This document shows, one piece after another, positions 1,776-64,000 of a DNA stretch of 64,000 nucleotides. The notes beneath the pieces are model-generated. The model did no database searches. It worked only from the letters and a program-made list of their open reading frames with translations, and had not been told where the DNA came from. Each line of letters begins with the position of its first letter. Position 1 is the first letter of the stretch. The translations under genes were made by a program, and so were the position numbers. This DNA comes from Cyanidioschyzon merolae (lineage: Eukaryota). The stretch is from assembly GCA_000091205.1 (NCBI GenBank), contig AP006490.2. The stretch is one strand, 5' to 3'.

Positions 1776-1794
1776 CAGGATCGCCCCCGAATCG

Positions 1795-1995: not shown

Positions 1996-3342
1996 ATGCA
2001 ATGGGGAAAGTTCATAGATGCGTTCGGGAAACCGATTGAGAGAACTTCGGCGAAAGCAGTTGTTGAGGAGCCGTTTTCCACGGCGAGGCGCAGTGCAACC
2101 GTAGCGGCTGAGGCGAGTCCAGAGGCAGCGGGCCGTGGAGGAGCTTTCGACGAAGCCCTGAAACTTGTTCAGGACCTCGAAGACCAGAACGAGTGTTTCG
2201 ATGGCTCCAAAGTTGAGCAACTGTGGTTTTTGCTGCGTACAGGCATACTGGATAGGTGTAAATACGCACTAGATTCGGAGACGTCCTCGAGCTGTGGCGG
2301 GCTCAACGCCTCGGGACAGTGCCCGTATTGCCAAAGCCTTGACGCTATCCGGCCAGACTGGGAGAGGTTTTCAGCTTTGTTTCGTCAACTTTCGTTTGGA
2401 AGCAGTGCTGGAAGGTGCACAAATGACACTGCGTCACCGATGAGTGTCACGAGTTGCCGTGCACCGTCGAACATGCAACAGGTGCTTCGTGATTCAAACG
2501 ATGTTCACGACGCAAGCACCGAACTACAAGAACGACTCGAAAGTTTGTTGCTATATCGCGACGTTTTTCTCGCCCACGCAACGCAGGTCGTTCGCGCCCG
2601 CCTTGAAGAGCGGGCGGCATTGCAAGAGGCGATCGCTGGCAAACGCGACCTCATCACAAAGTTGCGGAAGCGAATTGCTGAGATCCAGCGATTGGGTTTG
2701 CCTCGGGAACCGCAAGTTCCTCTGACAATGCCAAAAAACGAGGGCACGCCTCGCGATGCGCATGAAGCGACTGCCTCGCCTGTCGCACTAGACGAGTCCA
2801 TCGACGACGCAGGCGTTGCCGGGAACAAGTCCCCAGCAATCGGTACAGGACCTCTGCCGATGATGCATAACGAGCTGACACTTTCAAATGATGATGCCCT
2901 GTCGTCCGGAGCGTTCTCGTTATCTTCAGCTCGTTCGGGTTTTGTGAGCGAACATGTGCGGGTCGCGAAAACGACCCACGGCGACAAGGTGTCTTCAGTG
3001 GCAGAAATCACGGCGTTGAACAATCTCGCGAACGTTGCTCTACAGCGCCTGCTGGGCTCCGAATCCCCGAGCGCCGCCCCGACTGCGGTGGTATGCGGAA
3101 CCTCACCGCATGCATTCAACGCAGTCAGCGCGGATGTGTTACCAGTGCGGAATGTGCTCAGGGCATTCACCCGACACCCCGAAGGCGTACCCATCTCCGA
3201 GCTGCCAGCAATGATGCTCCGAGAGACCGGCGATCCCGTGGTAGCAAATGAGATCGTGGAGTCGCTTTTGAACGCTTGCGTCCTGGAATACGATGAAAAC
3301 TACACCAGCGTACGACTTTTTTCTGAATTTCATCTGGGGTAG
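1996..3342 (+). CDS. Hypothetical protein with a coiled-coil middle region.
   Basis: Long ORF. The first ATG after a low-complexity leader is at 1996 (MQWGKFIDAFGK). The track's earlier start at 1795 (MMIMMMM) lies inside the microsatellite. No diagnostic motif recognised. Confidence 0.45.
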   Translation: MQWGKFIDAFGKPIERTSAKAVVEEPFSTARRSATVAAEASPEAAGRGGAFDEALKLVQDLEDQNECFDGSKVEQLWFLLRTGILDRCKYALDSETSSSCGGLNASGQCPYCQSLDAIRPDWERFSALFRQLSFGSSAGRCTNDTASPMSVTSCRAPSNMQQVLRDSNDVHDASTELQERLESLLLYRDVFLAHATQVVRARLEERAALQEAIAGKRDLITKLRKRIAEIQRLGLPREPQVPLTMPKNEGTPRDAHEATASPVALDESIDDAGVAGNKSPAIGTGPLPMMHNELTLSNDDALSSGAFSLSSARSGFVSEHVRVAKTTHGDKVSSVAEITALNNLANVALQRLLGSESPSAAPTAVVCGTSPHAFNAVSADVLPVRNVLRAFTRHPEGVPISELPAMMLRETGDPVVANEIVESLLNACVLEYDENYTSVRLFSEFHLG

Positions 3343-7849: not shown

Positions 7850-8110
7850 CTGGCTCTGTTCCAGCACTTTGATTTCTTTCGAACTTTATGATAGATGCAT
7901 AGTCTTGGCATTTGCAGTTCAGTGGCAGACGCTCACAGATTCATTCGTTTTTTACGGAATTTCGGTCGTCACTTTGGCGTGGTTTCTGCGACGGTTCGCT
8001 GCTGCAATTCGATACGTCACAGGAATCAAGGTGATTCGCAACGCCGTCGAACAAGCGTTCATAGCGTAACCGGTATCATTATAGAACCCATGTGTGCGAG
8101 GCCCCACGCT
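7850..8110 (+). repeat. Dispersed repeat family R2, copy 1.
   Basis: Alignable to 18940-19185 (+) and, in part, to 45150-45270 (-). Shared blocks: ..gattcattcg.., ..gctg(c/g)aattcg(a/g)tacg.., ..ggaatc(a/g)a(g/t)gtgat.. . Confidence 0.55.
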
Positions 8111-13688: not shown

Positions 13689-13900
13689 CCTCAGCGAGCG
13701 TCGTGAACTTGGCTCCGGAGTACCACAGCGCACCGGCCGCCTGCAAGTGAAAAGATATTGCTTCCGTGCGCACCTGCTCGCCAACTTCCCGATAGCGAGA
13801 CTTGACGCGGTCCAAGCGGGTAGTGCGCTCCTCTGCAGCGAAACAAACATAGAACCACAGTCGAACGACCCCGACCGTGTACAGTAGTGACAAACACGCC

Positions 13901-16040
13901 CTAGACAAGAAGTCGCGAACTGGCGTACAGACGCCTCCCCGTCTGTTTGGACCGGCCCCCTACTACTGCTTCCATTTTTTTCTCATATAGTTCGACTTTG
14001 AGAGGTTGTCCAACAAAGTCCTCTCTTGTCAGCTCTGGATGTCTCTGCTCCAGCACCGCACATTTCCTTATATCGATAGCGGCATTAAAATCTCGATTTA
14101 CAAACTCCATCCGTTTCTTGCTATCATTCGTTGTACTAACCAGCGCAAGTAGCCCTCGCACTTTCGCTCTCCTTCCCATTCGCTCTTCCTTCAGCGCACC
14201 CTACTTTGCTATGTCCTCAGGGCTCCGCTGGCACTTTTCCATCTCGACCCTCTGAAGTGTACAACCCAGCTCGTGGTGTGTATACGATGTTCGAAATTCA
14301 TCTATCGGCATTGTACCAAAACGCCATGCGCACTCCTTATACGTTCTCGTCGTTGGAGCTGGCGTAGTTCCTTTTTGGGTCTTCCATCGCCCTGCTCCGT
14401 ACGCTACTACGAGCCATTGACTCTCATCCTCCTTCATGGCGCTCAACTTATTGAAAAAGTTGGCGAACGCCCGCTGCTTCCCACCGTACAGATTCATTTG
14501 CAGACGAGCCCACCGGGGCTTGGTATACTTCCCCCACAGTGCATCCCAACGAGCAACGCGAACTTCCATGACTTTCCGAAAAGCTGTAAAGTCCGCCCCG
14601 CGACTCGTCACCTCGCTCAAAGCTTCCAGGTGATCCTTCATTCCTGCATTCCATGTCTCGATTTTTTCCTCGCATTGATTATAAAGGATTCTCGGTAATG
14701 TCTCTATCTTTAGAACTGAAAAAGACACATGTCTTTCTGACGTAAGTTGCCGTCAGTACCATCTTCCGCACGCTTCGGTGCTGTGATGGTTATGATATTT
14801 GTGTTTCCGGGGTCTGCGTCAACGATAAACTCGTAATCCTCTACCTCTTGCGTCGCAGGATCCTCCTCTTTCTCATCTTCATGCTTCGCCGAAGGCAAAG
14901 CCGAGGGCGGAACATGGCGATCCGCCTTCAGCCGCCCATAGTGTACACACAAGGCTACTCCATCGGTTTCGATCATCCTAACGAAGAACATCTGCTTGCT
15001 CACTTTCAGAAGTTTGAAACTGAAGATGTTCTTCCAGTACGTCTCCCGATTTTCGCCGGTGAACTCCTCCCTGCTAACATTGAACTCCGGACTGATCTCC
15101 ACCATGATGCCATAGAGGACTCTGGAGTCGATAGTCACAAAATGCGACTTGATATTGCACATTGGAAACATGTTGCAGCGCTTTCCCATTAGGAAAGCCT
15201 TCCGTCTCTCCCACTCTTCATTTTTTCCTCACTCAGCTTCACCTCTGCCTTGCGTTCGAGCTGTCGGTCCAGAAACACGAAATAGAGCAGGATGACTTGA
15301 TACCATCTTTTTTCATCAATTTTCAACTCTGATACCTTGTCTGTTGGATTCGGTAGCCCCAGTACCGCACGATGCTCTTGTATAACCGCACGGATCGCGG
15401 AAGCTTCATTCGTACTCCCTTTTGACGCCTTCTTGTCGACGAATTCGACCTCATCTTCATGCTTGCGATCGTACGTGATGCCATTGATAATCGCCCATTT
15501 TCCACTGCGAGAGATGCCCGGGTAGAGTGCAAACACGGCGTGTAACATGAAACGTTCGAGGTTCACTGTCAAATGGTTCTTCAGGTTTGTGATGTACTTC
15601 ATCGCCCCATAGCGGTAAATATCCCGGTCACCCCTGTATCGAGTACTCTCGAACCTGTAAAAGGGATGTGTTTCGTGCAAGGCATGCACTAGCATATCTT
15701 CCCTCCGCGTTTCTTCTCTACAAAGCATCGGGTGACGAATACAGGTCTTGTCGAAAAACTCGTCTGGAATCTCGACTGGTTTGACGTCCGTCACTTCGCG
15801 ATACATTTCCCTCGCCAAATGCATCAGTCCTGACGACGCCTTGAAAATACTCTCGGAGTACGAGTCGACACGTTTTTTGATAGCGTCTCGCAACTTTTCC
15901 CTGTAGGGATCCTTGATATGTTTGAGAAGACAGGTTTTCACCACCATCTTGTGGTACGGTCGTCTTTCTTGCAGCCTTCGACGTAGGGCCTCCCAATTTC
16001 GGTCCTTCTTCTTCTCCTCCTTTTCCTCTGGACTCGGCAC
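13901..16040 (-). pseudogene. Fanzor/TnpB-like RuvC nuclease gene, broken.
   Basis: Four collinear ORF pieces: 15189-16040, 14710-15189, 14201-14728 and 13901-14179. Motifs present: RuvC-I ([15 protein letters not shown]), an E-x-TS segment ([15 protein letters not shown]...EMEKC) and RuvC-III (FVNRDFNAAIDI). The ATG start is lost (cagtg where copy B has atggcg). There is a 1-nt deletion at 15189 relative to copy B (ctaatggg-aaag vs ctaatggggaag), and a second break at 14710-14728. Confidence 0.7.
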
Positions 16041-16343
16041 TGTTTTTTTTTCTGCCAGCCGGTTACCCTGGGCCTCCAGGATCGTCGACTTGGATTTTCA
16101 TATCTTTCCTTTTTTTCGTTTTTTTGAACAAGAACGCTCTTTGAACGCTTCTGTTATATACTGCGAAAAATCAATCGAATATTTTTACTTGAGGTTTGAA
16201 GCACAATCGAACTGAAAGACTGTACGTTGCTATGACCTGAGCAAAAATACAACTTTTACAGTAGATCTACACGCTAGAGATCAGGATCACGTTTCGCTTC
16301 CATGACGGAATACGCGTCTTGTCTCATGCCTGCCCGATCTACG

Positions 16344-16373
16344 AGGTGCGCTCGCTGAGCGCGTTGCGCGCAC
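16344..16373 (-). other. Boundary hairpin at the left end of element A.
   Basis: ggtgcgc / gcgcacc 7-bp stems around a 16-nt loop. The 3' arm (gcgcacctc) is the first sequence shared with copy B. Confidence 0.45.
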
Positions 16374-16796
16374 CGCGCGAGACGCCTCACCGATCGATGA
16401 AGGACACGTGTCCGACGTCGCTTCGGCACATTCGTGTTCGCATCGCGCTGCAGCGGAAATCAGCTGTCTTAGATTGGAAACTCACGTATCTAGCGCCGAT
16501 TCGCGCGTAGCGCGCCGTTGAGCTCGCACCGGCGGCCGTCGTCGCCGCCGCCGGCCGCCGGTGCCGGCCGCCGTAAAGCGCCTCTGCGCGCCAACGATTC
16601 GCGTATCGCCAGGACGTATCGTTGTGGCTTGTCTGCGGTCGGTTGCAGTTCGTACTGTGGTGGCGCAAACGTCGTCGGAAGTGTCTTTGGAGCTGAGTTT
16701 GTTGTGCGCGCGGCGAGCTCACAGTTCCCGCAGCAAAAAGTTACTCTTGCCGGTTAGTAACAGTTTTCCGACGTCGTCTTCTTGAGACCTTTTCCG

Positions 16797-18939: not shown

Positions 18940-19185
18940 TGCTGCCTGTCGATTTTCTCCCCGAACTTTTCTTAAATGGTCAGCCTCGACATTTGAAGAG
19001 CAGCAAGAAAGGCACACGGATTCATTCGTACACTTAGGATTTGTGATCGTGTTTTTGGAGTGGCTCGTTCGATTGAATACTGCTGGAATTCGGTACGCTA
19101 CCGGAATCGATGGTAGTCGCACCAGACTCGAACAAGGGTCCGTAAAATAACCGATATTACCATTGGATTCCCATGTTCTCGAGTG
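18940..19185 (+). repeat. Dispersed repeat family R2, copy 2.
   Basis: Aligns to 7850-8110 (see that entry). Confidence 0.55.
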
Positions 19186-20469: not shown

Positions 20470-22050
20470 GACAGCCTCGAATTACGCGGACTAGATATTG
20501 AAGTGAGAGCATTGCTGGAGCGTGTTGCAAACAAGTACGTGTTCTCGGACGCGGGCAATGTGTTCCGGCAAAAGCGAGTACATCCCGAATCATTCGTTCA
20601 TGATCGCAGTGCCGGATAGTGGCTATGATTAGAGCTCCTCGTTCGAGGGCGCACCCACGAGATGAGGTTCTCGCTGGAAGTCGTCTCGTCTGAAAGTGGC
20701 GACGTTGTCCAGGAGCGACGCGTACAAATCTTTCGAAACGCTCCATGATATCTATGCTGCCCGTACCCCATTGTTTCCCTGGTATATACCTGGTGTGACT
20801 AGGCCGTGCCTCCGTTGACAAACAAGCGATACATAGCTTTTTATTATAGCTTGTTCGTCTCTTTTCTTCATGCATGCAGCACCATTTTTGACGCGAAAAT
20901 TCCATGACTTGCACAAAACAGGTGCCGACGAACCAGGCGGCCTCTGTCGCGGCGCCAAAAACAACGAGCACCAGTTCATCTCGCGGACGATCCGAGTTAC
21001 CGAAACGTTCCCATTTGCTCTGCATCCGTTCTTCATGCCGCGAAACTGTTCTAAATCAAATGGATTCATGGAGAATAAGTTGGATTGCTTAAGCTGAAGC
21101 TTGTTGTTTTTTTGGTATTTCTCGAACAAAAGAAGATGCTTCATCTTCAACATGTCATAAAGCATGTACTCGGCGGAAAATCCAGACTAGAGACGACGTC
21201 GAGAAAATTCGATCTGTGCACACTTCTGTTGCCCAAAGTACTGACGAACGCTGGTCTGGGAGCGATTGCTGCGATGATGCGGGTTCTCAGTCCCATTTCC
21301 ATCCAAACAGAAAAGACGAACGCCTCTGGCAGCATGTCCCTTGTGAGGTGCCACGCTGCTGTTGTGGAATGCCATTTCGTGGATGGACGCAAGACTAAAG
21401 GCATTTGTCTTTCAACTTAATCTATGATCCTTCATGAGAAGATCAGTGACCCTGCGGCATGAGCTTGTGAGCAAGTCGTACAGGGATAATGTCGAGTTTT
21501 TCTCGCCGTCAATTCAGCGGCGCCAATTGCTAAGTCGTCGAGTTGTCTCGAAACAGAGAGGGTTGAAAGTTTGACAAACGCGTGATTTGGCCATGCTAAA
21601 TGTAAGAAATGGAGAAGAGAATAGGCCAGCATGAATGCATTGGATCATGATACCAGTTATTTTACGTATACTTGATCGTGCGCGTTGCGAACCATCTTGT
21701 TGATGGTAACGTAACGAATGCCATCATCAAAGAGTCGAAGAAGCCACTCCATAGACACGCCCGAGAATCCTAAAACCAAATGTGAGCCTCCAGCCTATAC
21801 TGTTGTTCTTCGCATGTCGAGGCTGCACATTCAGATCAACGTTCAGAAACATATCGAAAGGCACGCGCAGAGTAACCAGTCAAGTTTTCGGTATCAAGTC
21901 TGACACAGGTGTCGCTCGCGAGCGGCCGACACTGTGCAGCCGGCGTCCGCCACGCTGGTTTAGCGTCGCTCTTCCCGCGACTTGGTCAGAATCTCTGCGG
22001 GAGACGACTGGGATCCACGAGAAGCAGACGGACTCGAAGTCTTTATCCAT

Positions 22051-31488: not shown

Positions 31489-31866
31489 CCTCGCGCATGT
31501 TCGCTGCTGTATTCATTTGTCGAGCATTTTGGTGAACGAGACGATGATGCGGTATTCGCATACTTGGGCAAATGCTAGCGTTGAGGCGCGCGCCGCATTC
31601 CCGAACGAACACACTGGCGTCCTCAGGTATTCTCGATCATCGTCAGGTCGTGCGTTCCAAACGGGCGCTGCGCCTGGAAGGAGCACCCGCGTTCACGCCT
31701 GGAGTATTCATGCGGACGCAACGCGGAGACGGAACGGCTTTGCCTTGTCCGTGTGGGCGTCCAGAGCATGGCCGCCGTTGATGCGGCGCGCACCTGCGCT
31801 TCTGCTGCTTGTGGAAAGCATGCACGCCCTGCATGGATTCGCGGTCGATGCGTAACGTGCCTGCAC

Positions 31867-35865: not shown

Positions 35866-37074
35866 GCGACACCGTCAGCCTCGTCCACAACCTGGTTACA
35901 AGTCAATAGCCGCACAAGTCGCAATGTGATCGCCACCACCCCGCTCAATGGAAGCACAGTCAAAAGCAGAATAGCGCTCTGCGAAGACGGCAGGCACTCG
36001 TGCCGAACACTGACATGCGCTGTGCCGTCGTTGCCGCGATCGCCGTGCACTGTGATGGACACGTGTTGCCGGTGCGTCTGCGCCAGTGCACTGCTTTCTT
36101 TTCATGACAACATGGTTATATGGATCATAGATTCCAGTTTGCGGTTTGGATAATGGTAATCAAGAAAGCGTCCGTTATGATACACTTTACTTCCAAGTTC
36201 CATCTCTCATGCTTCCTCTGGGATACACTGGTCATTTCGTACGTTCTATCGTGTGCCAAGTGCCTGTCTTGCTGTACCCGTAATAGCAGATATGAAGCCG
36301 GAGCAGATGCATGACGAAGACAGAGCGGCTTTTGCTATATTACTGAGGGCATCGGAACGAGGAACGCTTGATCTGACACGGAGTCGGCGCTCATAATCAT
36401 TCTAGGAACGAGCAAGTTGTGCTGATAGCCTTACTGCCCGCAGCAGCTCGAGGCGATGGTAGAGGAGTCCACTGCGACCAGGGCGATACCCAGACGCAGC
36501 CAAACCGCCCCTGGTTCCAGAATGAATTGCGTGTCGGACGAGTTGCTGCTCAGGTCTATTCACAGCACTAGGTACTGGGAAGGTCAGGAAGCACTGGTCT
36601 GGCAGACTCGTCCGGCTCGCAGGACACGCCGCCTGGAAGGGACACGATCGACAATTCGGAAACCTGTTCCCTTTTTTAAAGTTTATCGTTGAGAGGGAGA
36701 GAAATTGTTATTTCGTTGCTACCTAGACGCTACTCTCTGTTCTTTGTTCCATATAGTGCGGTCGATACACGCACCTCCATATCTGGGAGGCGTGAGAAAC
36801 GAAGCGCATCTGGCCGTTGAAGGGAAACGTGATACTAAACATGCGCGTGTTATTCTAGCGTAGAAGTTGTATTTGCGTTGAAGTCGTAGCAAAGTATAGT
36901 TTTTCAGTTAAATTGTGTTTCAACCCTCAGCTTAGTGTCTTCAAGTGATTTTCGCGGTTTATAGCAGAAGCGTTCAAGGTGCGTTCTATTTCAAAAAATA
37001 AAAAAATATGGAAAAGGATGTGGAAGATTCTGGAGCACAGGTAGCGCCGGCGGCAAGGAAAAAAAAGATAAAAA

Positions 37075-39573
37075 ATGGCGGAGCAAAGAGGATCAGGAGA
37101 AGACGAAGAAGCTGCACGCGGGCGACAGTACGACGAGATCGTGACGAAAGCCTGTCTCTTTCAACATATCAAGGCTCCCTGCATGCAAAAGTTGCGAGAC
37201 GTCATCAGAAATTGTGTCGATTCATACCCCGGCAGTGTTCGTAACGCTTCTTTAGGACTGATGCATATTCCGAGGGAGAGATATCGCGATGTGACGGACA
37301 TCAGAACAGTTGAGGTTTCGGAAGAGTTTTTCGACAAGACCCTAATTCGTCACCTGATACTTGGCACAGGGGAAACGTCGACGAAAAATGAGCTCGTGCA
37401 TGCCCTCCACGAAAACTTCGCCGAATACGGCTGAAACTGTACTCGGTATCGGGATGACTCGCCTATTTACTGCTACGGAGCGATGAAGTGCCTCACGAAC
37501 CTGTAGAGCCACGTGATCGTGAACCTCAAACGCTTCATGGTACGCTCCGTCTTTGCACTGTACCCGGGACTGTTTCGCAAACGAATATGGGCGATTACCA
37601 ATGGAATCACGAACGATCGACAGGATGAAGATGAGATCGAATTCGTCGACAAGAAGACATCACGCAGAAGAAAGGATGAAGCTTCTGTAATCCGTGCGGC
37701 TATACAAGAGCACCGTGCGGTACTGAGGCTGGCGAATCCAGCAGACAAGATATCAGAGTTGAAAAAAGATACTGAAAGATACGAACGCATCGTCCTGTGG
37801 TATTTCGTATTTCTGGACCAAGAGCTCGAACGCAAGGCAGAGGTGAAGCTGAGTGTAGAGACAAATGAAGCGTGGGAGAGACGGAAGGCTGTCCTAATGG
37901 GGAAGCGCTTCGACGTGGTTCCAATGTGCAATAACAAGTCACATTTTGTGACTATTGACTCCACAGTCCTTCATGGCATCATGAAGGAGATCTGTCCAGA
38001 GTTCGATGCTAGCATGGAGGAGTTCTCCGGTGAAAACCGGGAGACGTACTGGAAGAATATCTTCGATTTCAAACGTCTCAAAGTGAGCAAACAAAAGGTT
38101 TTCACTGGGTTGATCGAAACCGATGGAGTAGCCTCGTGTATACACTATCGGCGGTTGAAGAAAGATCGGCCAGTTCCGCCCTCGGCTGCGCCCGTGACGA
38201 AGGATGAAGAAAACAAAGAGGAGGATCATGTGATGCAGGAGGTGGAGGATTACGATATTGTCGTTGACATGACGAAGCATGAAAAAAAGGAGGCGGCTGG
38301 TCCGGCGACTCAGGAGGTAGAGGATAACGGCTTTATCGTTGGCGCTGCGAAGCATGAAGATGAGAAGGAGGCGGATCTCACGACGCAAGTGGTGGAGAAT
38401 AACGACTTTGTCGTTGGCGCGACGAAGCAGGAAGGTGAGAAGGAGGCGGGTCCTGCGACGCAGCAGGTGCATGAGAAGCGCGTTGTCGTTGGCGCGACGA
38501 AGCATGAAGAAAAGAAGGAGGCGTATCCTGCGACGCAGAAAGTGCAAGATAACGACTTTGTCGTTGGCGCGGACCCCGGTAACACAAATGTCATAACCAT
38601 CGCTGCACCGAAGCGTGCGGAAGATGGTACTGGTGGTAACTTTTGTTAGAGAGACATGCGTCTGTTGAGGTTCTCGAGAGCGAGATACTATTGAGAATCG
38701 GGAATCATGAATGCGAGGAAGAAAATCGAGACGTGGAATGCAGGAATGAAAGATCACCTGGAAGCTTTGAGCGAGGTGACGAGCCGCGGGACGGACTTTG
38801 AAGCTTTTCGGAAATTCATGGAAGTTCGCATTGCTCACTGGGATGCGCTGTGGGAAGAATATACAAAGTCCCGCTGGGCTCGTTTGTGAATGAATTTGTA
38901 TTGTGGTAAGCGGCGGGCGTTCGCGAATTTTTTCAATGAGTTGAGCGCCCTCAAAGAGGATCAAAGTCAAGGGGTCGTAGTAGCGTATGGGGAAGGGCGC
39001 TGGGCGCCCAAGAAAGGGACTATGCCAGCTCCGACGACGAGGGTGTACAAAGAGTGCGCAAGGCGTTTCGTTACAATACCTGTAGACGAGTTCCCAACAT
39101 CGTATACACACCATGAACTGGGATGTACACTTCAGAGAGTGGAGATGGAAAAGTGCCAACGGAGCCCTGAGGAATTTGCAAAGTACGGACCGGTGACGGA
39201 GGAGCAAATGGAAAGGAGAGCGAAAGTGCGAGGATTGCTTGCATTGGTAAGTACAACGAATGACGGCAAGAAACGTATGGAGTTCGTGAACTGTAATTTT
39301 AACGCCGCAATCAGTATAAGCGGATGTGCGGTGCTGGAGGAAAGACCTCGAAAGTCCACAAGAGTGAACTTTGTTGGACAATCGCTCAAAGTAGAATTAT
39401 ATGAGACAAGATTGGAAGCAGTAGTAGGTGGCCGGTCCAATAAGACGGGGAGGCGTCTGCACGTCAGTCGAAGACTTTTCGTCCAGGGCGGGCTTCTCGC
39501 CACTACTGTACACCGCCGGCGACAACGTTTTTCTTTTGAAAGACGTTTGCTGTTGCCGGTGACGGCTGCGTAA
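37075..39573 (+). pseudogene. Fanzor/TnpB-like RuvC nuclease gene, broken.
   Basis: Pieces: 37075-37434, 37513-38649, 38707-38889 and 38890-39573. Ruv[17 protein letters not shown] and E-x-TS ([15 protein letters not shown]) are present. RuvC-III reads [12 protein letters not shown], so the catalytic Asp is replaced. There is a frameshift plus stop at 37434-37513 where copy A is intact, and a stop between 38649 and 38707. The native stop is lost. Confidence 0.7.
38236..38580 (+). repeat. 4.5 x 75-bp in-frame tandem repeat inside Fanzor copy B.
   Basis: 25-aa units (..[26 protein letters not shown]..), each re-duplicating the beta-strand that precedes the RuvC-I DPGNTN motif. Copy A has a single unit. 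Confidence 0.75.
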
Positions 39574-42003: not shown

Positions 42004-42488
42004 GGTATCGCCCAGCTGCCACGAACGATGGAGGCTAGCGCGTCCTCGTTTTGGGTAGCGCGCGTGCGCTGCGCGGCCGCGTCGACATGCGACACGCTCC
42101 TGCCACGAGTTGATCAAAAGCCTCGCTCTAGGTACCTCAAAAAGCTTTTGCGGACCGCAAGACGTGCAGCGACGCAGCGCCTGTAATCCAAGATCGATAG
42201 GCTGGAAGTCTTCAAGGAGAAGCTGAAGCCGGCAGCATGCGGCCGGTCAAAGAAAGGCCCGGAGGCGTCTCTAAGTGCGTATTCATGTACATTCAATAAC
42301 GTACCATAAACGTCAAAGGAAGGGAAGACCTTTCCATATTGTCGAAAGTTTACCGCCTAGGCGGAAGGTCCGCGAGCCGGACGAGTGTGCTGCGCTAGTG
42401 CTTTATCCTTCCTCCAGTGGCAGGTGCTGTGGCGAGACCTGCACAGCTCGTCTGCAACGCATTTCATTCTGGGACTAGACACAGTAAA

Positions 42489-42885
42489 GCCGCATATGGG
42501 CGTCGCCCTGGTCGCAGTGGACTCTTAGCATATCGCTTCGCGCTGTAGCAGGCAGTACGTCTGCATGTACAGCTTGCAGGCTCCCAGAATGATTACGTAC
42601 CCCGACCCCGTGTCGCATGAACCAAGCATCGAACCGACGCCCGCAGTGGTACGGAAAAGCCGTTCTGTCTCCGTGCAGCACCTGATTCAGCGGTACAAGC
42701 GCCAAGGCGGGTGTTCACGGCAGGCAGTCGGCGCACGATAGAACGTACGAAACGACCAGTATACTCGGGAGGAAGTATGGGTAATGGAACTTGATGGTAG
42801 GTGCTTCATCGTGGACGCTTTCCCGAGAGCCATGATACATTCCGAATTCTGGGATCCGTGGTCAATGTAAACGTTTTGCCATCTG
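42489..42885 (+). repeat. Dispersed repeat family R1, copy 2.
   Basis: Aligns to 1221-1775 (see that entry). Confidence 0.6.
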
Positions 42886-44101
42886 AAGCAAATGGTGTTG
42901 ATTGTTCTTCCTGAGCCTACCATACCGCGCGGTACCAGGGCGCTGCACTGTAGATGCCTGAGTTTGGCTGGTGCCTCGCGAGTGGACGCGTGTAAGGTCG
43001 CTCGCTTCGCTGGTTGCCGCTCGGCATGGACTGCTACAGACGTTGCGGCAAATGGATCGATCCGGTGAAGAGCAGCGATGATCGTTGGGGATTTTGAAGA
43101 CACATCTATGATTAGAATCGTAAGGAGATAAAGCATCTGAAAAATGGCTGGGAGTATGCTCCATTCATCGATCGTGTGTGGTGGCAGGTATTTTGTGCAG
43201 CGAGGTGAGCGCGCGTCATCAGCCTAGAACTTGCACCGGGGAGCGTTCAAGTCCGATGCATTCTGAACAGAGCCGGGGGCTTGTCACCTCCGTCGGTCGA
43301 GTTATTGATGAGCACGATACGCGTAAATGCGCTGCGAATCGCCTTCGGATCCTTGCTTGACCTTCGCAGCTGCCACCAATATCCGCTCTAAGGCAAGTCC
43401 GACGCTGGCATTCCAGAAAAGCAATGCGAGCTTATTGGGCAGCGATCCTGGCCCCGCGTATCTCCTCGCGCTATGCCTGTTAGCAATCCTAGACTGGCAT
43501 TCCAGCAAAGTTTCATACATTCACTGAGTACGAGTTGGGGGCCTCGCGCATCGGTGCCTTCCCGGCATCGTAACCACTGCCACGAGAACGACAGCTGCCT
43601 TGCGCCGATGCCCGCGACGAACGTCGAAGCTGTTGCGTGTCTGTCGGAAGCTTATATTGATGTATCCAGCGCTGTGGCAAGTGTCTGGGCTAGGCTCGAA
43701 GTTCGTGGGGTCACAGAAGCGGGTGCAAATGCCAGGAGCCGTCACTGCCGTTTCTCAGCGGAGCGACTCGAACCTGCTTCCGCAAATAGCGCCCATTGCC
43801 TAGCACGGCACATCGCTACGCATGCAATCGACTGGTGAAGATGGGCCTCTCGACAGGCTATGTGCTCGCTGACGATGATTTCAGAGGCCTCGAAAAATTA
43901 GCGTTGAAGGACGACAGGGAAGCATACTTGCCTAGGGCAAGCAGCATACTGTGGATAGGGACGGAGCAACTGAATCCGTTTCTCTGGTGCATCCCGGAGA
44001 CAAGCAGGTAGGCAACCAGCCAGGCGTTTAGGTAGGTATTTAAGCAGACATGCAGAGACACATACACTCTGATGCACTCGTATCCGATTCAAATGGTACG
44101 A

Positions 44102-44866
44102 ATCCACTAACTTGGACGAAGGCAATAAAGTTTGATTCTCTTATCACTGTCATAAATACTAGCCTTCATGGACGATTTATGCGACTGCTTCGATTCACGC
44201 GCTCCTAGCTCCGGCTTTGAGTACGCTGGCCTCCCTGCCTGCCTATCCAACTCCGTTGCAAATAGTCACAGCATGTTGGTGGCAGCGTTCAATTACCGAT
44301 GCTGATGCTTCCAGATGTTTTCGACGCATTTCACGCACAGGCAGTACCCAGCATCTGCGCTTCGCTTGCCATTGTGATCTTCATTTCGTTCAGCGTCGGT
44401 GCGCCGGTCGAAGCGACGACGCTCGGCCTTGGTCAGGTGTTCCCGGACGTCGACAATGCTCCGTCTCCCGAGATCCACGCTGTGGCACATGAAGGTTCGC
44501 TTCATGATCCGGGATATGCGCATCACTGGGGCAGAGGACGCTGCTCGATGCCCCGCCTCGTTACCTAACTCGGTGCATCACCGACATAGGATTACCGGCT
44601 TCATCTGAGCGACCCGTCGATGGTTTGGCGTCGCCATTCTACGGAGGATTTCTGGAACACGATGATTTGCATGACGGAACGAGTACCGGACGGCAGTCCA
44701 GGTTGGGTACGAAATTTCCAGAGATTCCGATCCTTCTGGGCATTGCTGGAGCACAGCGGATATGCCGTCGCGAGTCTACACGAATGCTGCAACGACTCAA
44801 GTGTGGTCCTTGTACCCTTTGCCACGGAAACCGAAGAGACGGCATCCTCTTGGTGCATATCCTGTG
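44102..44866 (+). repeat. R3: 765-bp direct repeat, copy 1.
   Basis: About 98% identical to 47807-48570, with only a handful of substitutions and one indel seen by eye. No TG..CA termini. Confidence 0.85.
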
Positions 44867-45149
44867 ACAGGTAACCTGTGGATGCTGTCGGATGTCGCCA
44901 CATGGGTTGCCACGAAATGAGCAGGGATTTATACATCGAACCGAACCGATCACGTGACGTGGCAAGTGGAGCAAACTTCTGGCTTGAGCATACCCCCCAA
45001 TTCGTGAACGACGGACGTCGAGGTTTTTCTCTTCGCCGGCCCAGCTGCGGGAATACCTGCGCCCACGACTTGCCTCGAAATAGAAAGAACGAAACCATGG
45101 AGAATGCCTCATTGGGGCATGAAACACGTAACGATAGGAAAAGAGTCCA

Positions 45150-47453: not shown

Positions 47454-47806
47454 GAAGCAGCGCCAAAACCAGTGTGCGCGCTCTCTCCCTGTTGAGGACG
47501 CTTTGGGTACGCGGTGCTTGACACACCCTCCAGGGAGCGATGCGCCGCGGCTCTGCTGAAACTTGAGTACGCTCCGTAGCCGACCGTGTGCCTGAGCCTA
47601 AACGGCCACGTTAAGTGCTTCCCCTTGTGAGAGAGTAGCCGTTGTCGGCAACTCAGAACGCCCTAGAGCCACACGAGACTAGCCAGTGGGGTTCACGAAC
47701 GTCGTCGAGACGGTTGCGGCGGCGTTGCCGGTGACGCGTGCAGCCTTGCCGCGGAGCGCACCTGCGGCGTAACACACACCGATGTGAGCAAGTGCCATAA
47801 AACGGA

Positions 47807-48570
47807 TCCACTAACTTGGACGAAGGCAATAAAGTTTGATTCTCTTATCACTGTCATAAATACTAGCCTTCATGGACGATTTATGCGACTGCTTCGATTC
47901 ACGCGCTCCTAGCTCCGGCTTTGAGTACGCTGGCCTCCCTGCCTGCCTATCCAACTCCGTTGCAAATAGTCACAGCATGTTGGTGGCAGCGTTCAATTAC
48001 CGATGCTGATGCTTCCAGATGTTTTCGACGCATTTCACGCACAGGCAGTACCCAGCATCTGCGCTTCGCTTGCCATTGTGATCTTCATTTCGTTCAGCGT
48101 CGGTGCGCCGGTCGAAACGATGACGCTCGGCCTTGGTCAGGTGTTCCCGGACGTCGACAATGCTCCGTCTCCCGAGATCCACGCTGTGGCACATGAAGGT
48201 TCGCTTCATGATCCGGGATATGCGCATCACTGGGGCAGAGGACGCTGCTCGATGCCCCGCCTCGTTACCTAACTCGGTGCATCACCGACATAGGATTACC
48301 GGCTTCATCTGAGCGACCCGTCGATGGTTTGGCGTTGCCATTCTACGGAGGATTTCTGGAACACGATGATTTGCATGACGGAACGAGTACCGGACGGCAG
48401 TCCAGGTTGGGTACGAAATTTCCAGAGATTCCGATCCTTCTGGGCATTGCTGGAGCACAGCGGATATGCCGTCGCGAGTCTACGCGAATGCTGCAACGAC
48501 TCAAGTGTGGTCCTTGTACCCTTTGCCACGGAAACCGAAGAGACGGCATCCTCTTGGTGCATATCCTGTG
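47807..48570 (+). repeat. R3: 765-bp direct repeat, copy 2.
   Basis: See 44102-44866. Confidence 0.85.
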
Positions 48571-48749
48571 GCAGATGCGCACGCCGCGCAACGGCGATAC
48601 CGCGGCTACTGTAAGCTGTCACTGCGCTAGAGTGCAGCTCGCAGGAGCTTCTGGGGAACGCTGTGCGTCGCTTTTTCCCATGATCAAGTCGTTTTCGTAG
48701 TGGTTCCTCGACTAAGAATAGGCTGCATCTAGCGAGAACGCTCTCTAGG

Positions 48750-50597: not shown

Positions 50598-50790
50598 TGT
50601 CGACTGCGGCTGCTGGGCACCCTGGATCATGAGGTCGCGTTCGAGTGGTAGCGCATTGACGCTGCTCAAGTCCGTGGCGCTCAACATGGACGATAATGGG
50701 AGCACCCTGGATCATGAGGTCGCGTTCGGGTGCCAGCTCATTGACGCAGCTCAAGCCCGTGGCGCTCAACATGGACGATGATGACGAAGC
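50598..50790. repeat. Two units of a ~95-bp tandem repeat.
   Basis: The unit caccctggatcatgaggtcgcgttcg(a/g)gtg..cattgacgc.gctcaag.ccgtggcgctcaacatggacgat is read twice. Confidence 0.7.
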
Positions 50791-58056: not shown

Positions 58057-58920
58057 TTGACCGGAACTCGTGCAGCTCGTCAGCAATACCTGCACCCTGG
58101 GAGCATGTTTCAAGTCGTGCCAGCGATTCAGCGCCGAGTGCCTGGCCACCAAAGCGGCTACTCCTGGGCAACACGGCTCGAGGCGAGGCGCCGCCGCCAG
58201 CTTCGTGCTGGCCGTTTCACCATGCTGTGGCCGTTCGGTGCGCTGGAGAAGCGCCGGCGCGCGTTTGCCGAGCTCTTCACCAACCCGAACTTCCCGCCAA
58301 GCTGGCCGTACACTGCGTCCGATTTTGAGCGTCTCGATGAATCGCCGGATGAGTTGTTTTACACACAGCCGCGATTCGTGACCCATATTGATGACGACGC
58401 AATCGCTGCGCTCAAGTCGTTCTACGGGGAAACACTGCGTGATGGAACCGATCTGCTCGACTTGTGTTCGTCATGGATTTCGCACTTACCGGAGCAGTAT
58501 CGACCACGCCAGGTCGTTGGGCTCGGGTTAAACGATCTTGAATTGAAAAAGAACACTCGCTTGGACCGGTGGGTGGTTCAGAACCTGAACGAGAACCCGG
58601 TATTTCCGTTTGCGGATGATTCGTTTGATTACGTCACATGCGTGGTATCCGTCGACTACCTGACCAAGCCGTTACAAGTATTTCGCGAAATACGACGGGT
58701 ACTTCGTCCCGGAGGAATGGCCATCATTGCCCAGTCAAATCGATGTTTTATGCAGAAAGTGATTGCGATCTGGCTTTCCACGAATGACCTGGAGCACGCT
58801 TATATCATAGGATCCTATTTTCATTACGCCGGTGGTTTTGAGAACTTGCTAGCACGCGACATTTCACGGGGACGTGGCGACCCCATGTTCGTGGTCACCG
58901 CTACGAAGCAGAGGACATAG
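58057..58920 (+). CDS. Class-I SAM-dependent methyltransferase (Methyltransf_11-like).
   Basis: LDLCSSW...VVGLGLNDLEL...FDYVTCVVSVDYLTKPLQVFREIRRVLRPGGMAII. The start is uncertain (58057, or the internal Met at ~58222). Its 3' end overlaps the FKBP gene's 3' end by ~20 bp. Confidence 0.7.
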   Translation: MTGTRAARQQYLHPGSMFQVVPAIQRRVPGHQSGYSWATRLEARRRRQLRAGRFTMLWPFGALEKRRRAFAELFTNPNFPPSWPYTASDFERLDESPDELFYTQPRFVTHIDDDAIAALKSFYGETLRDGTDLLDLCSSWISHLPEQYRPRQVVGLGLNDLELKKNTRLDRWVVQNLNENPVFPFADDSFDYVTCVVSVDYLTKPLQVFREIRRVLRPGGMAIIAQSNRCFMQKVIAIWLSTNDLEHAYIIGSYFHYAGGFENLLARDISRGRGDPMFVVTATKQRT

Positions 58921-60754
58921 TTGCTGCTGGCGCTGCCGCTGACGAAGATGATGACGAAGGATGGCGCTTCGCGTCTCGGAACATGGACGCAAAGAAGGCC
59001 TTGTCGCGGCGATCCTGTTCGCGAAGAATGCGCTTCAGCTCCTGGAATTTGCGTTGCGCTGGTTCATTCCGAGGTTCGAGTTCCAGGATTCGCCGCAAGT
59101 CGCTCGCTGCTTCGTCGTAGTCGGCGCGAGCGATGTACGCGCACGCTCGTCGATACAGCGCCTTGGTTTGGGCGCTTTCGCGCTCGAGCACCTTGTTGCA
59201 ATGCTCTATGACCTTGTCAGGGCGCCGGCGTTTCTCGTACACAGCGGCAAGGTTGAGCCTTGCTGCCCGCATGAGTTCCGCAGCCTCTGCTTTGAGGTCA
59301 GCCGGCAGGTCTGCATCATAACTGAATGCATTCACAATAAAATCATAATGGGGCTCAGCTCGATCGTAGCGTTGCTCTTTGTACAGTTTGTTACCGATTT
59401 CCTTGTGGCGTCTGGCGGCCTCAATTTTCTCCTGCGGCGACATTTCATAGCTTTGCTTGCCGTTCGTGAAACCGCAAAGCTTCACGTGATAGCTCTTCGG
59501 CAACTCACTCTCTGGCGTTGCTGGATCAGCGTACTGCTTGCTATGGATAGTGACAACCGCCTCCGCGCCTTTCTTCATTTTTGCGAGTGCCATCTCGAGG
59601 CCCGTGCAAGCCATACTGCCGTCGCCGAGCGTGACCTCTTCCTCGATGCCGCCACCACTACCATCAATGACGATTCGGCACCGCGAATCGATCTCGTTGG
59701 GACGCTCCCAGCCTTCACCTTCCTCCAGCACCTTCACCGTTACCTGACCGTCTGCAAGACTCGTGGTGCGATGCCATTTTGCGAGCCGCAGCTCTATCAC
59801 CGCCGAATCGCTCGCGCCAAGTCCCAACGTTGTAAACTCCTGTGCATATTGTGGCGCACAGGTCAGCTCGACGACCTCGCCTTTCTTCATATCCCGGATT
59901 GCTCGCTCTACACAGCGCGGCACAGGCATGCCCTGGTAACTGGGGCGCATCTCCGTATCCCGTCGAACAGCAAAGATGAGTTCATGCTCAGCACTGTCCT
60001 GCACCGGTTCTCCGTTTCTCCGAACGAGTCTATAGAAGGTAACTGCCTCGTCTCCATCGCGCACGTGCTCCCATCCGCTACCCTCGCGGATCACTTTGCG
60101 AACGCAGCCACGATCGCCGAACAAGTCACGCACACTGTGCCAGGACAGAAGCTCGATCTCGAACTCGAGGGTAGCGTTCGGAGGGATTTTCGGCGGTGCG
60201 CCCGCCTCACCGTACGCATAAGAGGGTGCAATTTCGAAGACCGCAACTTCGCCCTTTGCCATCGATTTCACTGCGATATCCCATCCTTTGATGACGCTAC
60301 CGCTGTCGAGCGTGAACTCGAACGGCTCACCGCGCTCGCGTGAAGAGTCAAACTGGGTCCCGTCGGACTTGAGGCGACCTACGTAGTGCACGCAAACCTC
60401 GTCTCCAGACTCTGGGTGCTCCCACGACGTCTGGGAGCGCTTGATGACTCGTTTCAAAACGCCACCGTCGCCAGTAAGGTCCTTCTCCTTATCGTCCTTG
60501 AGCGGCTCCGCGTCATCCATGTCGTCGTCTATGCCGCCGCCAACGTTTTCGGGTGCGAGTTCGTCGAGACTCTCCCCGTCGCCTTTGAACTCGGACTCGT
60601 CAGCCGCTATCGGTGTTGGTTCAGGAAGGCCTGTCTCTGGCTCGGTGACTTTTTCCGTATCTTTTGTGGGCTCGCTCTGTGCTTGGTTCATGGCTTTGTT
60701 TGCAGTGTCCTGTCGCGTAGTTTTCCGAGACTTGCGAGAGCGCAGCGTTACCAT
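58901..60754 (-). CDS. FKBP62: Large FKBP-type peptidyl-prolyl isomerase with three FKBP domains plus a TPR domain (plant FKBP62/ROF1-like).
   Basis: Three FKBP-like modules (..GEPFEFTLDSGSVIKGWDIAVKSMAKGEVAVFEIAPSYAYG..; ..GDEAVTFYRL..; ..GEGWERPNEIDS..), then TPR repeats (AAVYEKRRRPDKVIEHCNKVLERESAQTKALYRRACAYIARADYDEAASDLRRILELEP). Confidence 0.85.
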   Translation of the reverse strand: MVTLRSRKSRKTTRQDTANKAMNQAQSEPTKDTEKVTEPETGLPEPTPIAADESEFKGDGESLDELAPENVGGGIDDDMDDAEPLKDDKEKDLTGDGGVLKRVIKRSQTSWEHPESGDEVCVHYVGRLKSDGTQFDSSRERGEPFEFTLDSGSVIKGWDIAVKSMAKGEVAVFEIAPSYAYGEAGAPPKIPPNATLEFEIELLSWHSVRDLFGDRGCVRKVIREGSGWEHVRDGDEAVTFYRLVRRNGEPVQDSAEHELIFAVRRDTEMRPSYQGMPVPRCVERAIRDMKKGEVVELTCAPQYAQEFTTLGLGASDSAVIELRLAKWHRTTSLADGQVTVKVLEEGEGWERPNEIDSRCRIVIDGSGGGIEEEVTLGDGSMACTGLEMALAKMKKGAEAVVTIHSKQYADPATPESELPKSYHVKLCGFTNGKQSYEMSPQEKIEAARRHKEIGNKLYKEQRYDRAEPHYDFIVNAFSYDADLPADLKAEAAELMRAARLNLAAVYEKRRRPDKVIEHCNKVLERESAQTKALYRRACAYIARADYDEAASDLRRILELEPRNEPAQRKFQELKRILREQDRRDKAFFASMFRDAKRHPSSSSSSAAAPAATMSSAS

Positions 60755-61204
60755 ACACTAGCGCAGACCCAATCCTGTTTCGTGTGAAGCCCAAATCTCG
60801 CACAGTGCTTGAGTGTATGCCACACGCTCCTTAGTGCCTTGTGCGAAAACGAGCTGCAAACAACCCGTATTAGATTGGCCTGGAACAACTGGCGGAGGCG
60901 ATCCGCATCGCACCCGGGTCAAGACGAACTTTCCAGAAGACACGCTAGGCGTGTTGTCGCCCTGAGGCGAAGGATCATTCACCTAGACTGTATAAATATG
61001 TATTTTTTAGTATATTATAGGTAAAAGAGGACGGACGACCAATGGTCCGTGTTACCTAGCATGTCGATCGCTCTGAGGTATTGCCCCGCAACCGGTCTCC
61101 ATCGTTGGATACGAGACAGGATTCACGCTGATCAAGCACGAGAGCGTAGTACAACTTCTCGGGTGCAGCATCCAAACGATAAAACTCTCGAATAGCTGAG
61201 ACAC

Positions 61205-61800
61205 AGCCGCTGCTGGGCCGCCGCACGGTGACAAATTTCGAACGCATGGCGTGGGCGTCCACGATCGTAGTCGTCTTTTAACTTTATTCTATTCCACGTT
61301 CAAGTGAGTGTAAACAGATGCTTTTCGCAGTTTATAGCGGATACATACAAAGTGCGTTCAAGTTCATAAACATATCCTCATCTTGCGGACCATCGGGCGA
61401 AGAATAGCAATTGACGAAGAAGAAGACGGGAGATACACGAGAAAAGGTATTCGCCTAACGGGACATGGCTGAGATTGTAGTGGCACAATGGGCACGAGTT
61501 CTGGCAATCCTTGCAATGATCAGTTGCGCCAAAGGCGAAAAACGCATGGAGTTCGTGAAGTGAGACTTCAACGCCGCCATCAATAGCAGACGATGTGCGA
61601 TACTGAAGACGAGACCAGAGGAGCTGACGCAATCATACCTCATGGGGCAGTCTCTCAAGCTCGAAGTCTAAAAGGAGAATCTGGAACCTATAGCGAGGGG
61701 CCGGTCAAACAAGGCTGGCAGACGTGTGCGCGTGGGTATTCATTAACAGCACATAGAAGTGGGTCATTTTTTGTTTCTCTGAACACATTGTATCTCTGTA
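61205..61800 (+). mobile_element. Internally deleted, non-autonomous derivative (copy C) of the Fanzor-like element: 5' leader fused to the 3' RuvC-III region and tail.
   Basis: 61320-61375 aligns to the A/B leader (gcttttcgcagtttatagcgg.. vs gattttcgcggtttatagcag..). 61540-61760 translates to KRMEFVK*DFNAAINSRRCAILK...MGQSLKLEV*KENLEPIARGRSNKAGRRV, homologous to the A/B C-termini but carrying stops. The conserved ..tctctgtacc.. tail follows. Confidence 0.6.
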
Positions 61801-62475
61801 CCGCAGTAATCGGCGCTTAAAAGCTCCGGTTCCTGCTGAGTGCATTCGCTTGCTGGCCGGCCGGCCAGCTCTGTGGTCCCATTATGAGCTACCCGACAAA
61901 CCCCTTGTCTCTTTGCATGTTTTCTATGTCCTTTCTAGCGGGAGCACGTTGTCTTGCCTACTTGTTGCAAGGACGCCTGCTCGCTCATACGGAGACTCTG
62001 GACGGAGGTGGGTCTGCATCTTCGGCCTCCGATCTCCTGTTTTTCATACGTCGTGGCATCATGGTCGACATTTTTAATGGCATCTCGTATTGCCGGACTT
62101 TTCCTTGGATCATGGGTTTCATTCAAGGCGCTGATCCCGTCGCTATCTGAGTCCATGTAGCCTGTATTCGCACAGGCACAGGTACAGGCGCAGCTCAGCA
62201 TAGCGCACACGCCAGCATCTTCGTGGCAGACAGAGAGACACCACCACCATTCATGGATTGTCTAACATCACTCGCGTTCGACAGCATCCAAGGCAAGCCA
62301 CGCCATGCGGCCGTGTCGTCGGCGTCGGTTTTCGTCGAGCGTGTATGCTATAACCGGAGTCGACATGTATCGAAATGTTCATTCATTCGGTTATCAATCC
62401 CACTTAACACCTGACCTTGCACAACACCAAGAATCAAGTTCTCATGTAGAGTCAAGGGGCCAGGTTCATGCTGTA

Positions 62476-62997
62476 TCATCGCAGCACGCGGCTCTCGCCA
62501 GTATTCAGAAGATTTCCATAACAGCGCCTGTAGAGGTCCACTTGACGCTCATAAAGTGCCGCAACAGCTGGATGTCGCAGGGCTTCGCGAAACTCGGCAG
62601 AACACAATTGTTCCAAGAAAAAAAGCGCAATCGGCTGGGACACGTGCTGCCGGTACGCCGGGTCCTGCCGCCAGCGCTGCAGAGTTGTGAGTCGTCTCTG
62701 CGCCACGACGTCGTCGAATCGACGCATCTGGCACAAATATGCCACATAAGACGGCGACGCAAGCGACTCTACCCAAGCAAGCTCCTCCAGAAAAGATGCC
62801 GCTGGCGGTATGCTCTCCAAAAACGACTCGTGCAAACCGCCCGAAGGCATCTCCTGTTGCTCCGTGTGTGCAACACCGGCAGCGGTGCTGGCGCTAGCGT
62901 CGGCACTGCCAACCAGCGAGGTGCTCTCCGAGCCCTCCCCCGCCTCGGGAGCAAGCTCCGCTGTCTTAGCTGCAAGTTTCCGTTTGCGTCCCGGCAT
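62476..62997 (-). CDS. MED31: Mediator complex subunit MED31/SOH1.
   Basis: FLEELAWVESLASPSYVAYLCQMRRFDDVVAQRRLTTLQRWRQDPAYRQHVSQPIALFFLEQLCSAEFREALR matches the MED31 core. Start taken at MPGRKRK (62997). Confidence 0.75.
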   Translation of the reverse strand: MPGRKRKLAAKTAELAPEAGEGSESTSLVGSADASASTAAGVAHTEQQEMPSGGLHESFLESIPPAASFLEELAWVESLASPSYVAYLCQMRRFDDVVAQRRLTTLQRWRQDPAYRQHVSQPIALFFLEQLCSAEFREALRHPAVAALYERQVDLYRRCYGNLLNTGESRVLR

Positions 62998-64000
62998 TGG
63001 TGCAGCGTATCGAGCGGTTTCCTCAAGCGCCCAACCGCCAAAGCTGGCAGGTACCGATACGAAACACGGAGTGTGTCCGCTATCGTCGGCTAAGCGTTGC
63101 GCTTCGCCACCAGTGATCGTCAGATCCCGTGCCAAACCCGCCCAACAAACGCTGCAGTCCAGGAAACAAAGACACAGACGCTGCAACTATTTCCCCTGAT
63201 CAACAGATCGTTCACATGAACTACCCGGAGTCACGAAAGCCGGGACAGCGATCCGCTGCGCACGCTCGAGCACGCCACCCGCGCACACATCGCAGGAGCG
63301 CGCGGACACGTGTCTGCGCTGCCTCGCAAACTGCGGCAGCCGCAACGGCCGTCAGCGCGATCTCCCGCGTCGATTCGCGAGCATTTGCCTTGCATCAGCG
63401 GCTGTGCTGCTGCTGCTGCTGCGCGCCGTCGCCGTGCACCGCCACGAGCAGCCAGCGCACGTCGCGTGCTGCGGCAGACGACGCACCTCGCGGGGCCAGC
63501 GCGCTCCATTCAGCAGCGAACACTGCGATTGGGGTCGCCTGAGCGCCTCCTGGAAGTGTGTGCTTCAGTGTTCCCTGGACTGGTGTCGTGCACCTGTGAT
63601 CACTTGGGTTCTCGGTGAGCTACTCGTTCGTAAATGGTTTTCGTTACATCTGCAGGTATAGCAGCCGCAAGGTCTGGGTGCTCTTGGTTCGGTGCCGCTC
63701 GTTCACCGGCTGCGTTGAGACGTACTGTGTGCAGTCGACGACCTCAGCAGCTGTTGGCGTCAGCGTACCCGGGCTCACGACCACCGCACGCCCACGAGGC
63801 TGTCCATCACGACGGTGCGCATCGGCCTGGCGAGCGAAAAGGTTTCGTACAGGAGATGCGGGTTGTCGCCATGCGCCTACACACGAAAGATCAGGCGCGA
63901 GAGGGGAAGCAGGAGGAGTCAGCACTGCCTATCACGGAATGGCGTCCGACGCGCGCCGACTTTTTGCAGTTTTTGGTGGACTCCAAGGCAGTCTATGATT

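Follow-up and report, generated by a model that had tools for sequence, protein, structure and literature searches.

A ~530-bp element at about 61257-61785 (plus strand) in a 64,000-nucleotide stretch of Cyanidioschyzon merolae DNA (the window) joins the leader of a Fanzor1 gene to its RuvC-III-encoding 3′ end with the interior missing, as the initial annotation of this DNA had claimed, and the same junction recurs in short copies at many unlinked loci. We conclude that this element, copy C, is very probably an inert and fixed insertion of a multi-copy, non-autonomous transposon family that would have arisen once by internal deletion of a Fanzor1 element, been copied to many unlinked sites in trans, and decayed neutrally thereafter. 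The Fanzor1 family concerned, CMe-1A, has already been published, and the short subfamily is an ordinary derivative of a conventional kind; we found no description of it in the accessible literature.

Copy C and its full-length relatives

Of the window's ten long ORFs, nine match C. merolae 10D proteins of chromosome 8 exactly (BAM79846 to BAM79863, CMH genes). Copy C lies in a 1,550-bp divergent intergenic region between a gene for an FKBP-type peptidyl-prolyl isomerase (58901-60754, minus strand) and an ORF at 62305-63093; its flanks (60755-61254 and 61791-62304) are single-copy sequence, so it does not sit within a larger repeat. Its extent was read from anchored end stacks and from information content, which at the 3′ end falls to background ~12 nt past the start of the last stem arm and so places the end at ~61785. 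The initial annotation had drawn the locus too widely, at 61205-61800. All three orthologous strain contigs (L016, L019, and L020) contain copy C, collinear and at 99.1-99.8% identity, the same as for the unique flanks; the comparison with an empty site in related strains, which had been proposed as a check, found every site occupied and no insertion polymorphism among these three close contigs. About 300 bp upstream of copy C, a strain-variable patch (60841-60954) contains the palindrome gacacgctaggcgtgt; contigs L014, L015, L017, L018, and L019, from several samples, break there, and L020 is only 96.2% identical over 60755-61254 versus ~99% elsewhere.

The window also contains two full-length copies. 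Copy B (36104-39545, plus strand) is a complete CMe-1A Fanzor1 pseudogene including a 5′ TE-N2_CMe module (36104-36689); by blastn it covers positions 3-3169 of the 3169-bp CMe-1A consensus at 82-87% identity, and it has 5 in-frame stops and a 75-bp tandem expansion. Copy A (13860-16488, minus strand) is a frameshifted Fanzor1 CMe-1 element in which an alternative 5′ extension takes the place of TE-N2_CMe; in a self-comparison of the window, A (16350-13871, minus strand) and B (36770-39519) are 76-82% identical. Copy C is homologous to both. In blastn searches of the window, its leader (61319-61370) matches A and B at 78-79% identity (E 1e-4 and 3e-6, the match to B being to 36946-36997 at 79%), and its tail matches B (61534-61616 to 39265-39347, 76%, E 4e-11) and A (61540-61728 to 14116-13928, 67%, E 5e-10); leader and tail matches are collinear, share one strand, and stand well above chance. 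Against the published CMe-1A consensus, blastn aligns 61292-61370 with 810-889 (75%) and 61534-61733 with 2889-3088 (72%, E 2e-27). The leader strings quoted in the initial annotation are both present, gcttttcgcagtttatagcgg at 61319-61339 and gttcaagttcataaaca at 61357-61373, as is the quoted translation (frame 2 of 61200-61820 reads ...GEKRMEFVK*DFNAAINSRRCAIL...).

Profile searches with nhmmer and alignment of the copies divide copy C into four segments and one private deletion. An HMM of the short family (619 positions, built from 19 copies with copy C and its orthologues excluded) matches copy C twice, HMM 11-112 to 61270-61369 (E 2e-10, 32 bits) and HMM 195-617 to 61369-61786 (E 7e-105, 345 bits). 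The identity between copy C and the family consensus is 78.8%. Scored with a profile built from six full-length copies (2728 positions), copy C reaches just 94+24 bits, versus 345+32 bits with the short-family profile. The 5′ leader segment (61262-61373, plus strand) corresponds to the Fanzor gene 5′ UTR (CMe-1A consensus ~788-889; full-length profile 130-242, E 6e-9, and blastn). The two short-family matches abut at 61369 with HMM 113-194 skipped, marking a private 82-bp deletion (61369..61370) that takes out the Fanzor ATG and first codons and is visible as a gap in an alignment of 20 short copies. A GAA/AAG-rich remnant of the N-terminal coding region (61374-61490, plus strand) then runs into the family-wide deletion junction (~61466-61490), ungapped against GACGGGACGATGACGAGACTGTAGTGGCACAGAGGGCACGAGTTC, the junction-spanning block common to all 20 short copies, with which copy C aligns without a length gap. 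The tail (61491-61737, plus strand; full-length profile 2418-2667, E 7e-30) comprises the last ~85 Fanzor codons including the RuvC-III motif, translated as KRMEFVK*DFNAAIN, and is followed by a 3′ terminal module of the short-family type (61738-61785, plus strand), identified by alignment to the family module and with its hairpins eroded. The interior loss proposed in the initial annotation is therefore real, but it is not a single loss of ~1.9 kb: it consists of a family-wide deletion of ~1.75 kb and the 82 bp private to copy C. Likewise, of the two ends said to be retained, the leader and the coding 3′ end are there, but the CMe-1A 5′ terminus and its last ~85 bp are not.

The tail frame of copy C contains four in-frame stops over HMM 287-610 (slightly beyond 61491-61737 at both sides): the last motif has become K*DFNAAIN, with R changed to a stop, and three further stops accompany it. 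The Fanzor1 motif D...[TS][TS]xx-Zn finger-x(5,50)-RD is readable in copy A, copy B, and an intact relative (P0001) as DADPGNTN ... NRDFNAAI; copy C does not match the full motif and keeps only its last element, interrupted by stops, and is thus a non-coding derivative rather than a Fanzor gene. We also considered ATGGCTGAG at 61466 as a retained Fanzor start codon with the deletion right after it, but the 20-copy alignment and the published CMe-1 protein rule against this: the true ATG falls in the 82 bp lost from copy C, and ATGGCTGAG is part of the conserved junction block.

The repaired copy A protein has 44 homologues, almost all in JGI metagenomes, including the intact 752-aa ORF of P0001 in a metagenome contig bearing the same element family. 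A profile search of the PDB with the Fanzor protein gave a sole match, to the S. punctatus Fanzor1 (8GKH), at a non-significant E of 1.3, and a single-sequence PDB search gave none; Pfam searches with ORF pieces and intact homologues returned nothing beyond a weak DUF8286 annotation; an AlphaFold2 model of P0001 from a 7-sequence alignment was unusable (mean pLDDT 32.7); and no relatives of the protein were found in the viral contigs scanned. The 75-bp tandem repeat in the Fanzor ORF (B 38198-38572) encodes acidic/lysine-rich units, of which there is one in A, about five in B, and several in L001 and P0010.

CMe-1A has been described as a ~3-kb C. merolae Fanzor1 element with ~150 copies, ~80% identical to the consensus and some of them intact (Bao & Jurka 2013, Mob DNA 4:12, PMC3627910); its 5′ 635 bp constitute a separate short element, TE-N2_CMe, with ~70 copies, and the study reports TIRs for neither element and leaves the TSDs of CMe-1A undefined (PMC3627910). 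A ~600-bp repeat in the window (1060-1599, 36118-36689, and 42303-42867) corresponds to the first ~640 bp of the CMe-1A consensus and is therefore TE-N2_CMe. The pieces at 1060-1599 and 42303-42867 are solo (both plus strand), and there are also a partial tandem piece at 1637-1748 (plus strand) and a fragment at 31672-31761 (minus strand); in many metagenome loci TE-N2_CMe precedes a full-length Fanzor unit by ~70 bp, oriented as in CMe-1A. Other repeats in the window include a 773-bp direct repeat (44098-44870 and 47802-48574, 99.2% identical and 3.7 kb apart, overlapping minus-strand ORFs) that suggests a recent local duplication with no connection to the Fanzor elements; a weak ~200-bp repeat (7880-8076, 18962-19157, and 21650-21831, also L001:12515-12723; 66-68%) that may be an old repeat family; and two ~82-bp tandem units, 91% identical, at 50617-50783.

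Copies, junction, and ends of the short family

Scanning metagenomes with aligned C-terminal sequences (~95 residues, the translation of copy C first) returned 80 loci, two of which (L019 and L020) are orthologues of copy C itself. A scan with the full-length profile found the architecture of leader joined to tail to be recurrent across loci. Twenty short loci are distinct by their flanks, and their alignment contains one uninterrupted junction block in which the only length variation is a 3-nt insertion in one copy. The initial annotation had suggested a search for further short copies with the same leader-to-tail junction; the short-family HMM finds them, with a single junction-spanning match at each of 23 distinct loci in 1.2 Mb of Cyanidioschyzon metagenome contigs (copies of 554-638 bp), 22 of these loci belonging to metagenome strains that are 98.6-99.4% identical to 10D where their contigs overlap the window. 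The flanks of the 23 loci are mutually unrelated, and the ORFs adjoining short copies match C. merolae 10D proteins, at 90% identity or more and in part perfectly, from at least six chromosomes (records of 1.28, 1.23, 0.91, 0.54, 1.62, and 0.81 Mb, the window's own chromosome being 0.74 Mb). That the element spread in its short form, and not through duplication of larger segments, was also claimed at the outset; this is more than a single locus can prove, but the many copies in the related contigs support it. Since the two halves of copy C are homologous to A and B and the copies have one junction in common, the element is neither a juxtaposition of unrelated halves nor one of a set of random deletions, each with its own junction. 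Copy C is the only complete short copy within the window; an isolated 99-bp tail fragment of the short type (42199-42297, plus strand; HMM 488-585, nhmmer E 2e-16; blastn to 61659-61743 of copy C) directly abuts the solo TE-N2_CMe at 42303 and may be a nested or truncated insertion.

Individual short copies are 72-81% identical to the 619-bp consensus and on average 65% identical to one another, a star-like divergence of the kind left by an old burst of copying and subsequent decay. Copy C, with its four stops, eroded hairpins, and private deletion, is typical of them. Conservation is almost flat along the element. A neighbour-joining tree of the tails separates the two groups: the short copies spread out as a bush of long branches, and A and B fall into a tight CMe-1A cluster away from it. 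Coding capacity has been lost: 19 of the 20 short copies contain stops or frameshifts, and their substitution fractions by codon position (0.19/0.20/0.23) come close to neutrality. In the consensus, the tail can be read through 108 codons without a stop, indicating that the founder's tail was still a reading frame; consensus-to-consensus differences between the short family and CMe-1A are distributed 23/15/27 over the three codon positions (of 93 each), a distribution that says nothing either way.

In terms of the CMe-1A consensus, the short family consists of ~788-1070 (5′ UTR, ATG at ~905, and the first ~55 codons) joined to ~2806/2835-3084 (the last ~85-95 codons), the deletion of ~1.75 kb running from ~1051-1071 to ~2806-2835. 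Both breakpoints lie in similar sequence of the CMe-1A consensus, a microhomology of the type AGTACG(A/G)...ATGG...AAAG, which limits the placement of the junction to a precision of ~20 nt. The consensus tail frame reads ...DDDETVV-AQRARVRGILALV...KRMEFVNRDFNAAINI..., and the translation suggests that ...YDEMVV was fused in frame to ...RRAKVRG...; the fusion is putative because the consensus as emitted shifts frame in an AAG/GAA run, leaving the ATG frame different from the tail frame, a shift upstream of the junction that we attribute to variable length of this microsatellite.

At the 3′ end, the last ~85 bp of CMe-1A are replaced in the short family by a different hairpin module of ~55-60 bp, which in the consensus contains two hairpins, GGGTAT/ATACCC and a 14-bp terminal stem ATGGTCGTGAAAC...GTTTCACTGACCAT. 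The same 3′ module ends the full-length copies L055/L080 and L030/L040, and the decayed copies L055 and L030, taken singly, reach 76-80% identity with the short consensus, as an ordinary short member does, whereas the undecayed CMe-1A consensus reaches just 77%. Because the 3′ module is common to them and L055 and L030 are as close as short members, the likeliest parent, judged by these comparisons, would be a sister full-length subfamily of the L055/L080, L030/L040 type, and not of the A/B type.

The 5′ end is less uniform. CMe-1A opens with the TE-N2_CMe module, ~770 bp upstream of the first position homologous to copy C; the short family does not have this module. Most short copies, including copy C, start near position ~130 of the profile and two start at positions 4 and 33; in six others (L022:15650-16030, L054, L068, L026, L098, and L025) an unrelated conserved 5′ module of at least 300 bp, which is not TE-N2_CMe, replaces the first ~90 bp of the usual leader (22 matches to it were found in the loci and none in the window). 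This heterogeneity means that the short family does not simply keep the parental 5′ terminus, and the 5′ modules of this Fanzor1 family appear to be exchangeable. A second 5′ extension of ~140 bp stands in place of TE-N2_CMe in a subset of full-length copies, namely copy A (at 16350-16488) and those of L004, L028, L032, L045, L056, L059, and L072, and is also found on one short copy, L070:11598-12331. No TIRs were noticed by eye in the anchored end stacks of the short copies, whose ends are placed within a few bases in copies ~21% diverged from the consensus, and no Helitron-like terminus or CTRR-like end was seen in the 3′ stacks. The initial description of copy C as MITE-like holds loosely, in that the family is short, non-autonomous, and multi-copy, but the family is probably not one of MITEs in the strict sense.

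Origin and spread

The history that we favour would run as follows: i) an element of the CMe-1 lineage lost ~1.75 kb once, apparently joining about codon 55 in frame to the last ~105 codons; ii) the resulting ~0.6-kb unit would have kept the 5′ UTR/leader, the ORF start, the RuvC-III-encoding 3′ end, and the hairpin-rich 3′ terminus; iii) this unit would have been copied to many unlinked sites by the machinery of full-length elements acting in trans, since it encodes nothing functional and its amplification needed functions supplied from elsewhere; and iv) all short copies would since have decayed neutrally. The retained leader and hairpin-rich 3′ end would then be candidate cis-acting sites, possibly the sequences required for mobilisation.

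The same structures could in principle have arisen without any mobilisation of the short form, if full-length copies had independently lost the same interval by microhomology-mediated deletion between the similar sequences at the two breakpoints. The microhomology fits such a recurrent hotspot deletion, and for this reason the junction alone does not decide against it; but the short copies share many substitutions that distinguish them from CMe-1A (the two consensus sequences are only 77-80% identical), most end in a common, distinct type of 3′ module, they group apart in star-like fashion, and six combine the same junction with a different 5′ module, all of which makes recurrent deletion very improbable. 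Harder still to credit is a purely local event, in which a full-length insertion at this site was deleted in place and has no connection to the other short copies: copy C is indeed alone of its kind in the window and is only 67-79% identical to A and B, but it matches an independently built short-family profile across the junction (E 7e-105) and has the family-specific 3′ module. A SINE-like retroposon was considered as well, on account of the variable 5′ and constant 3′ ends, and rejected on both head and tail: ARAGORN found no tRNA-like sequence in the window and Rfam returned no match in 60900-62100, and the short family ends in a hairpin module, not in a poly(A) or simple-repeat tail.

A single-origin deletion derivative spread in trans could also have had a function, and here a further mechanism would be added to the favoured history rather than replace it. 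The short family might be a guide-RNA-only satellite, which kept the promoter/leader and the 3′ end that encodes an omegaRNA/fRNA and whose maintenance or spread would have depended on the guides that it supplied in trans to the Fanzor nuclease of full-length copies. The guide RNA (fRNA) of characterised Fanzors is encoded in non-coding sequence at the 3′ side, next to the right end, and twenty extra stand-alone fRNA copies are reported from Chlamydomonas (PMC10530073), so that a guide-only role is conceivable for the ancestral short element. The short consensus keeps the last ~330 nt; its last 90 nt, which with an upstream stem form three hairpins, fold at -33.7 kcal/mol (z -3.4), with none of 200 shuffles as stable, and the terminal stem contains G-U pairs on the sense strand. 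Against this, RNAalifold found no conserved structure among 19 short tails (-0.31 kcal/mol) and weak local stems only among 32 CMe-1A tails; pairing within the hairpins is intact in 65-79% of cells (terminal stem, 70%), near the ~0.7 that we estimate roughly for neutrality from two arms each decaying ~21% independently; conservation stays almost level from end to end; the hairpins of copy C are eroded, the equivalent 90 nt having a z of -0.5; and a search of 60900-62100 against Rfam was empty up to E 1. On balance we regard a guide-only role as unlikely.

Relation to known elements, and meaning

The closest comparison is with CMe-1A itself, an element of the same genome and lineage. Copy C and the short consensus match ~788-1070 and ~2806/2835-3084 of CMe-1A at 72-80% identity, and both families have a similar identity, ~80%, to their own consensus; copy C differs in the absence of the ~1.75-kb interior, of TE-N2_CMe, and of the first ~125 bp of the Fanzor unit, and in its ~55-60-bp hairpin end. 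The ~20% by which the two consensus sequences diverge likewise speaks for a sister subfamily, and against the CMe-1A master, as the parent. TE-N2_CMe is likewise a short, multi-copy, non-coding relative of a Fanzor1 element in the same genome, but it represents the 5′ terminal module that is absent from copy C, whereas copy C is leader and tail. The 5′-truncated, non-autonomous Fanzor1 elements CRe-1, CRe-2, and CRe-3 of Chlamydomonas, and the stand-alone fRNA copies of that alga, resemble the short family: they derive from Fanzor, carry internal deletions and subterminal hairpins, and vary at the 5′ end while the 3′ end is conserved (PMC3627910, PMC10530073). The combination of a constant 3′ and a variable 5′ end recalls the 3′-anchored pattern of Helitron2-associated Chlamydomonas Fanzor elements (PMC3627910); the CRe elements, however, share termini with Helitron2, some of them with TSDs, whereas no Helitron-like end was seen in the 3′ stacks of the C. 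merolae short family.

MITEs are defined by TIRs and TSDs, and PATEs, which derive from bacterial IS200/IS605 elements, keep subterminal hairpins. All of these and the short family are short, non-coding, multi-copy, and presumed to be mobilised in trans; in contrast to PATEs, no Y1 (TnpA) transposase is associated with the short family, which is MITE-like only loosely.

For copy C itself little follows beyond the advice to mask it as a repeat: a fixed relic, it lies in a divergent promoter region and is decaying neutrally. At the level of the family, the Fanzor1 elements of C. merolae, whose genome is described in the literature as mobile-element-poor, gain a second short non-autonomous partner beside TE-N2_CMe. 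If the short unit was indeed amplified in trans, ~290 bp of leader and N-terminal coding sequence together with a ~330-bp 3′ end bearing terminal hairpins would have been enough, which narrows where the cis-acting sites and guide RNA of an unclassified Fanzor transposon may be sought. C. merolae is a fully sequenced alga with a 16.5-Mb genome, widely used for gene targeting by homologous recombination, and were the guide-only satellite to prove true, it would be a ready-made organism in which to ask what a transposon gains from its Fanzor.
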